Positions 12,068-16,188 of a stretch of DNA of 25,339 nt are shown piece by piece. The stretch's first letter is position 1, and the number at the start of each line of letters is the position of its first letter. The stretch covers positions 1 to 25,339 of the forward strand of contig LUZL01000227.1 of assembly GCA_001603615.1 (NCBI GenBank). The letters are read 5' to 3'. The translations under genes and the position numbers were made by a program. The notes beneath the pieces are model-generated. The model was not told where the DNA came from. It was given only the letters and a program-made list of their open reading frames with translations, and made no database searches. The stretch comes from Bacteroidales bacterium Bact_20 (GTDB lineage Bacteria; Bacteroidota; Bacteroidia; Bacteroidales; DTU049).

Positions 12068-13354
12068 ATGTTAGATTTATCGCAAAGACAAGAGATAATA
12101 GAACTAATGCACAAAGAAATAGTACCTGCTATAGGCTGCACTGAGCCAATAGCGGTAGCTCTTTGCGTAGCTAAAGCTAGAGAGATTTTAGGAGAAATAC
12201 CTGAAAAGATAGATGTATTATTGAGCAAAAATATTATTAAAAATGCTATGGGAGTGGGAATACCTGGCACTGGTATGATAGGGTTGCCTATTGCTATCGC
12301 TTTAGGAGCTACTATAGGTAAATCTGATTATAAACTACAAGTACTTAAAGATCTTACTCAAAATGATGTAGAAAATGCTAAGACATATATTGATAAAGGG
12401 AGAATAAATATTTCCCTAAAAGAAAATTGTCCAAATAATTTATACATAGAAGTTCATTGCTATTATAAAGAAAATCAATCAATTGCTATTATTCAAGGTG
12501 CACATGATAATTTCACTTATATAGAAAAAAATAATAAAATTATTTATAAACAAGATTATAGTGAAAATGATGATAATGTATCAAACATAGATTTAAACTT
12601 TGACAAAGTTTATGAATTTAGTACAGAAACTCCATTAGAAGAGATAAAATTCATTTTAGATGCTGCAGAAATGAATAAAAATGCTTCAATTATTTCAATG
12701 AATGGAGATTATGGTCATCAGATAAAAAATATTCTTTCTACTCAAAAAGCTAAGGAAATAATAGGAGATAACATATTAAATACAATTATAGCTGCTACAG
12801 CAGGAGCTTGTGATTTACGAATGGATGGGGCTATGGTACCAGTAATGAGTACAGCTGGTAGTGGTAATCAAGGAATAGCTGCAACTCTTCCAGTAACACT
12901 TTTTGCTCAATCTTTTAAATGTGATACTGAGCAATTATTACGTGCTCTCACATTAAGTAATTTAATGGTTATTTATATTAAACAGAAATTAGGTAAATTA
13001 TCTCCCTTATGTGGATGTGTAGTAGCTTCTACAGGCTCCAGCTGCGGAATTACTTATCTACTAGGTGGTAGCAAATCTCAAATTTCATTTGCGGCTAAAA
13101 ATATGATAGCCTCTATAACAGGTATGATATGCGATGGTGCTAAGCCAAGCTGTTCATTAAAAATAGCAACTAGTATTTATACAGCAGCATTGTCAGCTTT
13201 AATGGCAATAGACAATAATGTAGTTTCTCACCATGAGGGTATCATTGATGATGATATTGAAAAAACCATAGAAAATTTGGCAGATATTGGTAAGAGGGGG
13301 ATGAGAGAAACAGATAATGTAATTTTAGAAATTATGACTAACAAAAACATATAA
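12068..13354 (+). CDS. cyuA: UPF0597/YhaM-family L-cysteine desulfidase (serine dehydratase alpha-like, Fe-S)
   Basis: PAIGCTEP, KNAMGVGIPG, MSTAGSGNQG, LCGC and CDGAKPSC motifs. Confidence 0.87.
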   Translation: MLDLSQRQEIIELMHKEIVPAIGCTEPIAVALCVAKAREILGEIPEKIDVLLSKNIIKNAMGVGIPGTGMIGLPIAIALGATIGKSDYKLQVLKDLTQNDVENAKTYIDKGRINISLKENCPNNLYIEVHCYYKENQSIAIIQGAHDNFTYIEKNNKIIYKQDYSENDDNVSNIDLNFDKVYEFSTETPLEEIKFILDAAEMNKNASIISMNGDYGHQIKNILSTQKAKEIIGDNILNTIIAATAGACDLRMDGAMVPVMSTAGSGNQGIAATLPVTLFAQSFKCDTEQLLRALTLSNLMVIYIKQKLGKLSPLCGCVVASTGSSCGITYLLGGSKSQISFAAKNMIASITGMICDGAKPSCSLKIATSIYTAALSALMAIDNNVVSHHEGIIDDDIEKTIENLADIGKRGMRETDNVILEIMTNKNI

Positions 13355-13381
13355 TTTTAAAAAAAATTATATGTTTTTGTT
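13340..13381. repeat. Perfect 19-bp inverted repeat with 4-nt spacer between convergent cyuA and transposase genes (possible bidirectional terminator)
   Basis: aacaaaaacatataatttt (13340-13358), spacer aaaa, aaaattatatgtttttgtt (13363-13381); overlaps the cyuA stop codon. Confidence 0.85.
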
Positions 13382-13401
13382 GAAGTTATAAAAATAATAA
13401 T

Positions 13402-13425
13402 ATGTTATACTTAAAAGTTGTTATT
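13402..13425 (+). repeat. Putative IS terminal inverted repeat (downstream end)
   Basis: atgttatacttaaaagttgttatt; overlaps the transposase stop codon; 20/24 identical to the reverse complement of 14456-14479. Confidence 0.62.
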
Positions 13426-14413
13426 TATATCTTTGATTTACTAATCCTCTGTACTTGTCCCACGCCCATCTATCATGCGATGACAAGTTTAGTAATCTTC
13501 CAATGTCTGGTTCTATCAAATCTTTTAAATATTTATTCGTTATTACAAACCACATCAAGTAGCTCTGCAGGTATTTAGTAGCTACCCCATGAAATCTACA
13601 CAACCACACCTTGAAATCTTTTATCTTTTCCTCTACTATTTTTACACTATAAATGCCACGTTTTACTTGTCTTTTGTTTACTATCACCTTTTTACTTTTT
13701 AGACTCTTAACTCCTTTTTTGAACTCTTTCTTTGGTTTTACACATACTAGATTCTTCTCTGATATTCTATTCTTTAGTTCGTCTTTTAATTGCTCATTTT
13801 TTACTTTTTTCTCTCCAACTTGTTTAAAAAGTAAATTACCTTCACGGTCAGTAACTACTAATACAGCTACTTTGGGATGTTTTTTCTTACGTGCTCGCTC
13901 ATATTCTTCTAGACTTTTGAATTTCCTACCTTTTTCTGAGTAATTCATTAGCAGCTCATCAGCTTCTACTATACCTGAGAAGCTTATTCCTCCTTCAAAA
14001 GACCTCAATGCTGCTAATATTTTATGTCGCCATTGGAAGCTAGTTTTCAGACATATTCCAACCTCACTAGCACAAGCTCTCAAACTTTTACCATCTAGCA
14101 TACATCTCATATAGTCAAGCATCAATGGATATTTTCTCATTCGGTAGACAAAGGTGCGAGCGGTTTCTCGGAATTGATAACCACAAGTCTTGCATTTGTA
14201 AACTTGTCTGCCGTTTTGTTTACCAGCTCTGATGACGTCTTCACTTTTGCAGTTAGGGCAGATGGCAGCAGTAGATTGTATTTTTACTTTTTGGTAGTCT
14301 ACAGCATTAGCATTGCTATCAACTAGATATTGGTAAAGCTGATCTAGAAAGTCTCTCTTGTGATCTTTAGGCAGAGCTAAATATTCATCGGTATTTTGGA
14401 ATAAATCTTTCAT
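13421..14413 (-). CDS. IS1595-family transposase, second catalytic Asp substituted
   Basis: Zn ribbon CPNC..CKTC, HTH (SLRACASEVGICLKTSFQWRHKIL), GIVEADE, and WLCRFHGVATKYLQSYLMWF. The ATG at 14413 is preferred because the track start at 14434 is a TTG lying inside the promoter motif. Confidence 0.85.
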   Translation of the reverse strand: MKDLFQNTDEYLALPKDHKRDFLDQLYQYLVDSNANAVDYQKVKIQSTAAICPNCKSEDVIRAGKQNGRQVYKCKTCGYQFRETARTFVYRMRKYPLMLDYMRCMLDGKSLRACASEVGICLKTSFQWRHKILAALRSFEGGISFSGIVEADELLMNYSEKGRKFKSLEEYERARKKKHPKVAVLVVTDREGNLLFKQVGEKKVKNEQLKDELKNRISEKNLVCVKPKKEFKKGVKSLKSKKVIVNKRQVKRGIYSVKIVEEKIKDFKVWLCRFHGVATKYLQSYLMWFVITNKYLKDLIEPDIGRLLNLSSHDRWAWDKYRGLVNQRYK

Positions 14414-14431
14414 AAATTTGAAAATTTGGGA

Positions 14432-14439
14432 CAAAAATA
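14432..14439 (-). promoter_or_regulatory. -7 promoter element (TATTTTTG) driving the transposase
   Basis: The plus strand reads caaaaata, the reverse complement of a TAnnTTTG match, 18 nt upstream of ATG 14413 and inside the element. Confidence 0.6.
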
Positions 14440-14455
14440 ATTATTTTATTTGAAT

Positions 14456-14479
14456 AATAAAATATTTTAAATATAACAT
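14456..14479 (-). repeat. Putative IS terminal inverted repeat (upstream end)
   Basis: Reverse complement atgttatatttaaaatattttatt; 20/24 match to 13402-13425. Confidence 0.62.
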
Positions 14480-14487
14480 TAAAATGA

Positions 14488-14520
14488 TATTAACCTTATT
14501 ACTTTGTAATAAGGTTAATA
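14488..14520. repeat. Perfect 15-bp inverted repeat with 3-nt spacer (possible terminator of efp-lpxD)
   Basis: tattaaccttattac, spacer ttt, gtaataaggttaata; 52 nt downstream of the lpxD stop and 8 nt outside the IS end. Confidence 0.82.
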
Positions 14521-14572
14521 AGCTTATAAAAGTCTAAATTTTTGTTTTAATATTAAATACTGAACTCCTCTA

Positions 14573-15577
14573 TTAGAAATTATTAATATCTTTATTGTTA
14601 ATTTCTAAATCAGATGCTATACCATGATTTTTTGTCAATTTATTCACTGCATCAAATAATTCTGGTAATTTCTTTAATAAAGCTATTTCTCTCATTTTAT
14701 CTGAAGCTTCGCGTGCTGGACTACCAAAATATACTTTACCACCTTCTAGAGATTTAGCTACTCCAGATTGTCCTAATACTATTGCACCCTTACCTATAGT
14801 AAGATCTTTTTGTACACCCACTTGTCCCCATAAGATTACATTATCCTCCAAATTTACTACACCAGCTATGCCTGCTTGAGCAGCTATTAAGCAATTTTTC
14901 CCTATGATAGTATCGTGTCCTATTTGTATTAAATTATCTAGTTTACTCCCTTTACCTATAATAGTATCGGATGATACTCCTCTATCTATAGTACAGCATG
15001 AACCTATTTCTACATCATCTTCTATGATCACTCTACCACATCCTTCTAATTTATCTAAATAATCAGGACGTCTTTTAAAATAGAATGCTTCACCTCCGAT
15101 AACGGTTCCACTGTTTATAATTACATTATTCCCTATAATGGTATTGGCATGAATTGTAACGTTAGGATGAATAATGCAATTTTTACCAATTTTAACGTTA
15201 GGACCAATAAATACTAATGGTTGTATGATAGTACCTTCACCAATTTCAGCACTTGGATGTATAGGCATCTCTTGTGGTTGAAAAGGAGCAAAAAATTTTA
15301 CTAATTTTATATAATCTCTAAAAGGATCATCTGTGTAGATTAATGTTTTCCCTATTGGAGCTTCTACTTCTTTATTAATCAATATTATAGAAGCTGCACA
15401 AGTGAGAGCACGATTAAAATATTTTTCATTATCTACAAATGTGATATCTCCTGGTACAACTCTATGTATCTCATTGATGCCTGTGGCTTTTATATCTTTG
15501 TCACCTATTACTTTAGCATTTGGATTATTTATAATAGTGACAAGCTCTTTTATATTATATGGTCGCTCTAAGTTCAT
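14573..15577 (-). CDS. lpxD: UDP-3-O-acylglucosamine N-acyltransferase (LpxD family)
   Basis: N-terminal [12 protein letters not shown] domain, hexapeptide repeats, TIDRG and [11 protein letters not shown] (catalytic His). It may be one of two LpxD paralogs. Confidence 0.88.
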
Positions 15578-15618
15578 TCTTTTAGTATTTTTTGTTAAAA
15601 ATTTTAATTTTTATTATT

Positions 15619-16188
15619 TTAATCTTTATTAACTCTTTCACCGTATTCGCCAGTCAGAGTATTAACTTTAATTCTATCTCCAACATTAATAAAAAGTGGT
15701 ACTCTTATTTCAGCTCCAGTTTCTAAAATAGCTGGTTTCATAGCATTAGTAGCAGTATCTCCTCTCACACCAGGCTCGCTGTATGTAACCTGTAAAACTA
15801 CATATGTAGGTAATTCGCAAAATAATGGTGTTTCGCTATCTGCATGAAAAACTATTTCTACTTCTTGCCCATCTTTTAGAAATTGTGGAGCATTAATCAA
15901 TGATTCTGGTATCATAATTTGTTCAAAAGTCTCTACATGCATAAAGTGATAATCTTCATTATCCTTGTATAAAAATTGATATGGACGTCTTTCTATCCTT
16001 TGGATATTTATTTTAGCTCCTGATGTGAAAGTATTTTGTAGAATCCTACCACTAGGTATATGTTTTAGTTTTGTTCTCACAAATGCACCACCCTTGCCTG
16101 GCTTTACATGTTGAAATTCTACAATTGTGTATAGCTCTCCATTAAACTCTATACAAATCCCGTTACTTATATCTGCTGTTGTTGCCAT
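15619..16188 (-). CDS. efp: Elongation factor P
   Basis: [22 protein letters not shown] and VPLFINVGD motifs. Confidence 0.98.

Follow-up and report, generated by a model that had tools for sequence, protein, structure and literature searches.

Full-length IS1595-derived transposase genes without the canonical catalytic triad form a multi-copy family under purifying selection in the genus DTU049

The contig LUZL01000227.1 of Bacteroidales bacterium Bact_20 (25,339 nucleotides, here referred to as the window) carries, between a cyuA-like gene and lpxD, an open reading frame (ORF) that descends from the transposases of the IS1595 family of insertion sequences (IS). The original prediction, made from the window only, had presented it as a transposase with a broken catalytic site that was domesticated as a lone gene. 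We have compared the genome of the window (G000; 1.50 Mb in 269 contigs, 29% G+C, 72% completeness) with six congeners, which are genomes of the genus DTU049 from anaerobic digesters (G001-G006), and with a wide selection of related proteins. The case is at the same time less and more unusual than was proposed. It is less unusual as there is no unique host gene, and it is more unusual as a whole multi-copy, site-stable and individually selected family lacks the catalytic triad. Every copy is under purifying selection as strong as that on lpxD, that is, on an essential host gene. More specifically, the ORF of the window would be the gene of one old, fixed, IS1595-descended copy of a family that appears to have expanded only in DTU049, and all seven subfamilies present in G000 have lost one or more members of the canonical catalytic triad.

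By common expectation, a bacterial lineage retains an insertion sequence only as long as the element keeps transposing and is transferred horizontally, and copies that have become immobile should decay. A preprint on the REPIN-RAYT system states in its abstract that, with the exception of this system, vertical persistence over long times 'should not exist' (bioRxiv 10.1101/2021.07.10.451892). Here, a full-length transposase family without the triad is found at a ratio of non-synonymous to synonymous divergence (dN/dS, omega) of about 0.05 per copy, at the same sites across species that differ by a dS of about 0.8 in their host genes. Should the proteins be non-catalytic, the family would show a new route by which bacteria retain a transposase; should they be active, the view of what RNase-H-fold transposition needs would have to change.

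Catalytic columns of the protein and its relatives

The gene lies between the 3' ends of the cyuA-like gene (12068-13354, plus strand) and lpxD (14573-15577, minus strand), the names of which were taken from the original prediction. The product scores above the curated cut-offs of NCBIfam model NF033547 'IS1595 family transposase' (123.3 bits, cut-off 75), of the IS1/IS1595 zinc-binding domain NF050000 (45 bits, cut-off 28) and of Pfam PF12762 DDE_Tnp_IS1595 (36.5 bits, cut-off 27). Together with the zinc ribbon these scores identify it as a member of the IS1595 family by descent. The frame is open over 337 codons, starting from a TTG (13421-14434, minus strand), and is free of stops and frameshifts, as had been noticed before. 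Its length and limits had to be revised: the ATG at 14413 is common to all sister copies, so that the product is likely 330 amino acids (aa) long rather than 337, and the whole unit spans about 13381-14496, beyond the coordinates initially given. Below, D159, K233, S263, E268 and K287 follow the numbering of the 337-aa frame, and the cysteines of the zinc ribbon follow that of the 330-aa protein. The latter (C52, C55, C74 and C77) are invariant in 16 of 16 sequences, and the helix-turn-helix (HTH) that had been proposed is visible only as a set of conserved profile columns.

A search of 1.84 billion representative proteins yielded 3249 relatives at E-values up to 0.001, and 46 at E-values up to 1e-30. 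The query was aligned with 129 relatives of 290-400 aa from among the best 150 (MAFFT, --auto; 130 sequences in total). The consensus of the aligned relatives reads IVEADET ... lC(T/S)D..sY ... YHIQ(N/H)VN.yHS.LK.W...F.GVATKYL.NYL.WF. and D-D-N (Asp, Asp and Asn) occupies the three catalytic columns in 94 of the 130; at least one of the three is missing in 36 sequences and all three are missing in 20. For residue placement a hidden Markov model (HMM) was built solely from the 94 D-D-N sequences. The alignment and this canonical-only model agree that the query reads Asp-Lys-Glu (D-K-E) at the three columns, and the posterior marks of the model are at the top of their range. The first catalytic Asp (D159, in VEADE) is kept, as is K287 within GVATKYL; the second Asp is replaced by Lys (K233, in VCVKP), the conserved Asn at the third position by Glu (E268), and the His of the YH.Q.VN block by Ser (S263). 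Thus, all three replacements that the original prediction had pointed out, as well as the residues it had listed as retained, reappear when K233 and its neighbours are placed by sequence profiles.

The third catalytic position varies between the groups of the IS1595 family, where it is N, E or H. Measured against the D-D-(N/E/H) set of a working IS1595 DDE transposase, the query fails because of the Lys in the column of the second Asp. The proposed inability to cut DNA is likely to hold for the canonical chemistry. The stretch of residues 233-272 is indeed very rich in Lys, 14 of its 40 residues being Lys and 2 Arg; the isoelectric point of the whole protein is 9.76. A sequence search of the PDB returned matches to the zinc ribbon only and no IS1595-type transposase structure. 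PADLOC reported only Cas5, at the weak scores of 20 and 18 bits, on the stretch rich in Lys; we regard these matches as compositional. Rfam has no match at E-values up to 0.1 within 13200-14700.

The family in G000 consists of seven subfamilies, namely that of the query (subfamily 1) and six others with 42-64% protein identity to it. According to the profile alignment, the columns of the first Asp, the second Asp and the Asn read D, K and E in subfamilies 1 and 2; D, S and K in subfamily 3; E, S and N in subfamily 4; E, E and N in subfamily 5; D, S and K in subfamily 6, where an Asp is found one residue after the second column; and K, D and D in subfamily 7. The canonical D-D-N was present in none of the 64 tblastn matches in G000 and in none of the seven subfamilies, as judged from one representative each with the HMM. 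The segment that holds the second Asp (residues 201-250) has 2 invariant positions out of 50 across the seven subfamilies, versus 18-33% for each of the remaining segments. An acidic residue is missing from subfamilies 3 and 4 both at the second column and four positions further (+4), and subfamily 4 in addition has Glu at the first column; still, the two subfamilies are equally multi-copy and constrained.

In a tree of the 130 sequences (FastTree, midpoint root) the non-canonical sequences are spread over at least four separate clades. The clade of the query (19 sequences) is wholly non-canonical; unrelated residues such as Gly, His, Cys, Gln, Lys, Thr and Ile occupy the three columns, and the sister of the clade is a canonical sequence. 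Among the ISPna2-like relatives (a group label that stems from the original prediction) this loss, with long persistence afterwards, seems to have occurred at least four times. Survival for so long without the set suggests a non-catalytic role of the conserved parts, namely the zinc ribbon, the HTH, the first three strands (YSEKG, DR.GN) and the C-terminal GVATKYL block. Three non-canonical members of the query's clade (P0128, P0132 and P0133) are located on contigs of 58-97 kb, and their clusters have 1-3 members; other organisms may have these genes in one copy only.

Copies, selection and shared sites

The query protein has 65 matches in G000, 59 of which are without a stop. At the nucleotide level the unit of about 1.09 kb recurs with 90-93% identity in six further full or nearly full copies and in four partial copies at contig ends, so that the subfamily counts 7 full and 4 partial copies, and no full-length pair exceeds 96% identity. 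When all ORFs of G000 were clustered, no other multi-copy mobile gene family was found, the next groups being antisense ORFs and then a 20-member family of large proteins. The antisense ORFs lie inside the elements (in the window at 13653-13943, plus strand) and rank second in size among the 'families' of the genome (27 members, median length 122 aa); they are a Phe/Leu-rich mirror of the Lys-rich sense frame and probably not genes.

All six congeners hold the family, with 35 to at least 70 matches each and up to 206 candidates. Beyond the genus it was encountered in 4 of 24 genomes, namely in 2 of 12 genomes of the same taxonomic family (one match each) and in 2 of 12 genomes of other families of the order (one or two matches). 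Simple arithmetic on the match counts yields an estimate of 4-9% of a genome of 1.5-2.5 Mb. The holders (20 runs from 9 studies) are metagenomes of digesters, bioreactors, wastewater, biofilm, sludge or oil facilities. DTU049 is a GTDB genus that accounts for up to 15% of some biogas communities (PMC11932165, PMC10608942); at the share given in PMC11932165, transcripts and proteins of the family should be measurable. In four metagenomes the summed contig depth over 13417-14445 of the window, at 90% likeness, amounted to 20-100 times that of the flanks, a value that includes other organisms and hence is not a copy number, but that suggests more copies than the 11 assembled ones. Two copies in G000, on contigs C147 (4195-5289) and C259 (287-1373), have both flanks in common, so that the same locus is present twice in one bin, and differ by a dS of 0.33; the pair reflects either a segmental duplication or two related populations that were binned together.

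The sequence divergence between the copies is mostly silent. Among the seven full copies of subfamily 1 in G000, dS ranges from 0.31 to 0.54 and dN from 0.010 to 0.024, which corresponds to an omega of 0.024-0.067 with a median of 0.043. Compared to a majority-codon consensus, each copy has 33.5-48 synonymous and 4.5-12 non-synonymous changes (omega 0.030-0.071). The codon changes that are private to one copy comprise 60 synonymous against 9 non-synonymous ones, at a private dS of about 0.2 per copy. The median omega of subfamilies 2, 3 and 4 is 0.064, 0.045 and 0.068, respectively. Host genes that were compared to the congeners in the same way gave an omega of 0.11-0.12 for cyuA (dS 0.80-0.84) and of 0.049-0.052 for lpxD (dS 0.78-0.79). 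The proposal that the gene has been preserved is borne out (dN/dS 0.02-0.07). Moreover, maintenance by turnover only can be argued against by simple reasoning: it requires that copies be replaced much faster than inactivating mutations occur, which would leave almost no private synonymous change, and a private dS of about 0.2 therefore speaks against such a model.

A considerable part of the sites is shared between species. We analyzed the subfamily-1 copies that could be retrieved in six genomes and counted a flank as shared when one or more other species have a copy no further than 450 nt from it, with matching side and orientation. By this count 56 of the 91 flanks (62%; 22 groups) adjoin a copy in two or more species, and only 1 of the 91 flanks holds another copy of the family. 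With respect to the site in the window, the expectation that relatives would have the gene with a low dN/dS at the same cyuA-lpxD locus was confirmed in part. In G002 the element is found beside lpxD (a single alignment over 14084-16100 of the window, 82.6% identity) and beside cyuA, and in G003 cyuA is followed by the element in the same orientation, with an omega of 0.057 between the query and the G003 copy. In G005 and G004, however, cyuA and lpxD are on other contigs and no element lies beside them; a clean empty site was not seen there. The contigs of four metagenome studies enter the element from both flanks, and none joins across, although contigs tend to drop rare variants. Same-site pairs of different species have a dS of 1.08-1.40 and an omega of 0.057-0.080.

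The coding sequences of the copies nevertheless group strictly by genome and not by site. Shared sites in combination with clustering by genome imply gene conversion, and the simplest reading is that the insertions are old and vertically inherited, and that the copies would be slowly homogenised within each genome by gene conversion. For cyuA/lpxD, a single insertion event across the species is suggested by neighbourhood and orientation, the spacers being too diverged for proof: that between cyuA and the element is 46 nt in G000, versus about 140-190 nt in G002 and G003, and these spacers cannot be aligned.

The ends of the unit are conserved as well. The core TGTTATAC is kept in 31 true ends from six genomes (32 were extracted, one of which, the left end on contig C64, is a false motif match), between which synonymous sites are saturated. 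The similarity of the ends continues for about 12 nt past the core, up to a G-run at about -21 to -23, which gives a terminal inverted repeat of about 30 nt. Every subfamily has its own matching pair of left and right repeats, with an ATGTT core that is common to all subfamilies. The matching, subfamily-specific pairs imply that ends and protein changed together. No target-site duplication (TSD) beyond chance was detected in 13 of 13 copies, for which the longest direct repeats were matched by at least 62 of 300 shuffles; such old insertions could have lost a TSD by decay, and where exactly the tips lie is uncertain. Thus, many near-identical copies with TSDs, a pattern that the original prediction had listed as evidence against its own proposal, are encountered as far as the number of copies is concerned, but not as far as identity or duplication is concerned.

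Explanations for the persistence, and known parallels

In our view about even weight should be given to the explanation that the family consists of IS1595-derived, end-binding proteins that do without ordinary DDE chemistry, and that selection keeps each copy. The protein would no longer perform two-metal DDE chemistry and would bind the ends of its own element via the zinc ribbon, the HTH and the remaining RNase-H-like scaffold. It would probably act mainly in cis, as an autoregulator or a guardian of the element, and such action in cis would account for the separate selection on each copy. The copies within a genome would be slowly homogenised by gene conversion, and the occasional new copies, as found for the sister subfamily (subfamily 2), would need residual non-canonical catalysis or a helper. 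With slightly less than even confidence we propose the more general picture of a triad-less IS family that persists through the radiation of a genus as 50-200 vertically inherited, site-stable and individually selected copies and is still adding copies. This would represent either a 'multi-copy domestication', in which the host or the element needs the end-binding protein of each copy, or an RNase-H-fold chemistry that can do without the second Asp.

Several observations weigh against the end-binding explanation. The sister subfamily, which has the same D-K-E, has gained new sites in the lineage of G000. The flank of the copy on contig C192 is without the element in G001, G002, G004, G005 and G006, and that of the copy on C246 is without it in G002, G003, G004, G005 and G006, which in both cases are all the congeners for which the fetched flank extends far enough. 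In fact, the two C192 flanks are 44 nt apart in an alignment to G004, versus 1.76 kb in G000. None of the 10 flanks of subfamily 2 in G000 is shared, with eight shared groups among the other genomes, and the G000 copies constitute a clade beside one orthologous pair from G002 and G003. The new sites and the amplified clade imply that copies were added after the Asp had been replaced. In addition, all 121 proteins of subfamilies 1 and 2 read D, K and E at these columns, which could mean that the site is rewired and working, and 120 of the 121 have a Glu at +4 from the Lys. Finally, near-identical copies would collapse in short-read assemblies and many contigs end inside copies, so that recent copies may be hidden.

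A rewired site, made up for instance of D159, E268 and another acidic residue such as the Glu at +4, would turn the protein into an autonomous transposase and the family into an ordinary, slowly transposing IS. This is a possible, though rather unlikely, alternative. It agrees with the many copies, the intact ORFs, the subfamily-specific inverted repeats and the promoter-like motif, as well as with the sites gained by the D-K-E sister subfamily and the (near-)invariance of D, K, E and the +4 Glu, and the variable third position of the IS1595 groups would allow for the Glu at that column. Nevertheless, it leaves unexplained that subfamilies 3 and 4, which have no acid at the second column or at +4, are just as multi-copy and constrained, and that the wider clade has unrelated and even hydrophobic residues at the three columns. 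Moreover, selfish selection cannot hold omega at about 0.05 over a terminal dS of about 0.2 when 62% of the flanks are shared, and no TSD beyond chance was seen in the 13 copies, although old insertions could have lost it.

A third explanation is that the elements are non-autonomous, with the protein only recognising and pairing the ends and a helper doing the cutting, which could be subfamily 5 (E-E-N) or an unrelated nuclease or recombinase of the host. Such a helper would reconcile the lost Asp with the new insertions, and the Glu, Glu and Asn of subfamily 5 and the ATGTT end core common to all subfamilies are in line with it. Outside this short core, however, the ends differ between subfamilies, and a canonical relative that might serve was not found: with the canonical P0123 as query, only the same subfamilies were retrieved, at 31-38% identity, in five DTU049 genomes. 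Neither did the clustering of the G000 ORFs reveal a second co-expanded gene family, although a single-copy helper would still be compatible with that result. We regard the helper as improbable, but not negligible.

That a single gene was domesticated by its host as a regulator at the cyuA-lpxD locus, as originally proposed, is very improbable. The lost residues, the uninterrupted ORF, a promoter-like motif, the low dN/dS and the occupied neighbourhood in G002 and G003 are all as expected for such a gene, but the 11 copies of the same subfamily and the approximately 65 family matches contradict the idea of a lone gene, copies at the same site in different species do not group but cluster by genome, and the element is not beside cyuA and lpxD on their separate contigs in G005 and G004. 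Hardly credible at all is a dead IS that decays neutrally and is intact by chance or by gene conversion alone, for which one could invoke the lost catalytic residue, the absence of a TSD, the eroded tips and the non-functional IS copies of Wolbachia wBm, which are kept alike by gene conversion (as cited in the text of PMC3196728), as it is contradicted by the omega of 0.03-0.07 on every copy, by the 60 to 9 private changes and by the frames (59 of 65 are without stops), while unbiased conversion does not lower dN/dS.

A comparison with known systems puts the family in perspective. The IS1595 family has been divided into the groups IS1016, ISPna2, ISH4, IS1595, ISSod11, ISNwi and ISNha5 (Siguier, Gagnevin and Chandler 2009, as summarised in PMC8101967), and according to that summary it generates a TSD of 8 bp (PMC8101967). 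The elements described here are alike in having one ORF of roughly 1 kb, a zinc finger at the N-terminus, a DDE_Tnp_IS1595 domain at the C-terminus, terminal inverted repeats and many copies. They are unlike in that the catalytic set is lost (D-K-E in the query's subfamily, other losses among the six sister subfamilies), that sites are stable between species and that each copy is under strong purifying selection; an 8-bp TSD, which could have decayed, was not found.

RAYTs, according to the abstracts of two preprints, are single-copy genes that replicate separate, non-coding REPINs (Bertels et al., bioRxiv 10.1101/119735; 10.1101/2021.07.10.451892). They resemble the present family in their long vertical inheritance at fixed sites (here 56 of 91 flanks are shared) and in the purifying selection on a transposase-derived gene. 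In contrast, dozens of gene copies are found here, each in its own repeat-bounded unit and with catalytic residues lost. The nearest behavioural analogue is provided by the TBE transposons of the ciliate Oxytricha, Tc1/mariner elements for which genome-wide purifying selection and a role in programmed genome rearrangement are reported (PMC4724952). In both cases purifying selection acts on a high-copy transposase and is read as host use, but the host of the TBE elements is eukaryotic and their superfamily is another one, whereas the triad is degenerate here and a role in rearrangement is not known. Another Bacteroidota genome, that of Amoebophilus asiaticus, has very many IS with little recent transposition, typical DDE motifs and variable pseudogenisation, according to the portion of the paper at hand (PMC3196728). 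The high IS load, the little recent transposition and the gene conversion discussed there are shared features; its elements differ in keeping typical DDE motifs, and that portion of the text contains no selection analysis (the word 'purifying' occurs 0 times).

Transposon proteins that act by binding DNA without cutting it form a further parallel. InsA of IS1 is an end-binding repressor and represents a short N-terminal product of an active element, and TldR is a nuclease-dead derivative of TnpB that is RNA-guided and usually single-copy; unlike the present proteins, neither of them constitutes a full-length multi-copy family. The literature that was searched, with supplementary files and the motif tables of Siguier 2009 lying outside the search, holds no report of a triad-less IS1595-type family under purifying selection, nor of such a pattern in bacteria.

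Features and surroundings of the copies

The positions of the features in the window are given in Table 1. As had been predicted, a TAnnTTTG motif, which may be the Bacteroidetes -7 promoter element, precedes the ATG. In 52 of 54 subfamily-1 copies from seven genomes (G000 and the six congeners) the motif lies 15-18 nt upstream of the ATG, versus 9% of random 90-nt windows. Over the 66 nt of 5' non-coding sequence the ungapped identity has a median of 0.55, a value that indels distort and on which no argument is based.

Table 1. Positions, strands and descriptions of the element and of adjoining features in the window
Feature	Position	Strand	Description
Transposase-derived ORF	13421..14413	-	330 aa from the conserved ATG; zinc ribbon, HTH region, RNase-H-like core, C-terminal GVATKYLQSYLMWF block
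Left end	14467..14496	-	core inverted repeat ATGTTATAYTTAA at 14467-14479, and outer part up to a degenerate G-run (GG at 14494-14495)
Right end	13381..13414	-	core inverted repeat at 13402-13414, and outer part; a congener copy aligns from 13382
GAT codon of D159 (VEADE)	13958..13960	-	first catalytic Asp, kept; codon read, MAFFT and HMM
AAA codon of K233 (VCVKP)	13736..13738	-	column of the second catalytic Asp; codon read, HMM
GAG codon of E268	13631..13633	-	column of the conserved Asn (third catalytic position); codon read, MAFFT and HMM
TAnnTTTG promoter-like motif	14432..14439	-	18 nt upstream of the ATG
Terminator-like hairpin	14488..14520	-	15 pairs, located 3' of lpxD; its 3' arm runs into the outer left end of the element
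Palindrome	13332..13391	+	located 3' of the cyuA-like gene, directly next to the right end of the element

At a distance of 7-20 nt from the left end, on its outer side, strong hairpins (-14 to -25 kcal/mol; their stems differ) were noted in 4 of 5 copies of subfamily 2 (contigs C192, C230, C246 and C18), in 3 of 4 copies of subfamily 4 (C10, C224 and C186) and in 1 of 6 copies of subfamily 1 (the window, 14488-14520). These hairpins could be terminators of upstream genes, which would imply a site preference or survivorship, or they could be part of the unit. The base composition around the copies shows an inverted frame as well. Over about 80-100 nt outside the left end the fraction of G is 0.18-0.26 and that of C is 0.03-0.05, and outside the right end the fraction of C is 0.15-0.26 and that of G is 0.04-0.08, at a genome average of 0.145 each. 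This G-rich/C-rich frame was observed in G000 for 19 full copies from all subfamilies (e.g. on C38, C179, C192 and C10) and contains no alignable sequence; at the copy of the window it is absent or eroded (13300-13380 and 14500-14580).

Some copies coincide with differences in gene order. The order breaks exactly at copies on G003:C73 (L031), G002:C30 (L041) and G000:C246. In G003 the copy on the side of cyuA is not followed by lpxD, in G002 the right flank of the C38 copy is located elsewhere, and the far flank of the C246 copy has no match that adjoins the near flank in the five congeners with a far-enough flank. Copies of the element thus seem to be sites of rearrangement. At the site of the C179 copy a subfamily-1 copy is present in G000, G001 and G002, no copy lies within 1.5 kb in G003 and G004, and G005:C1 (L062) has a subfamily-6 copy in the opposite orientation at about 1.3 kb from the shared flank.

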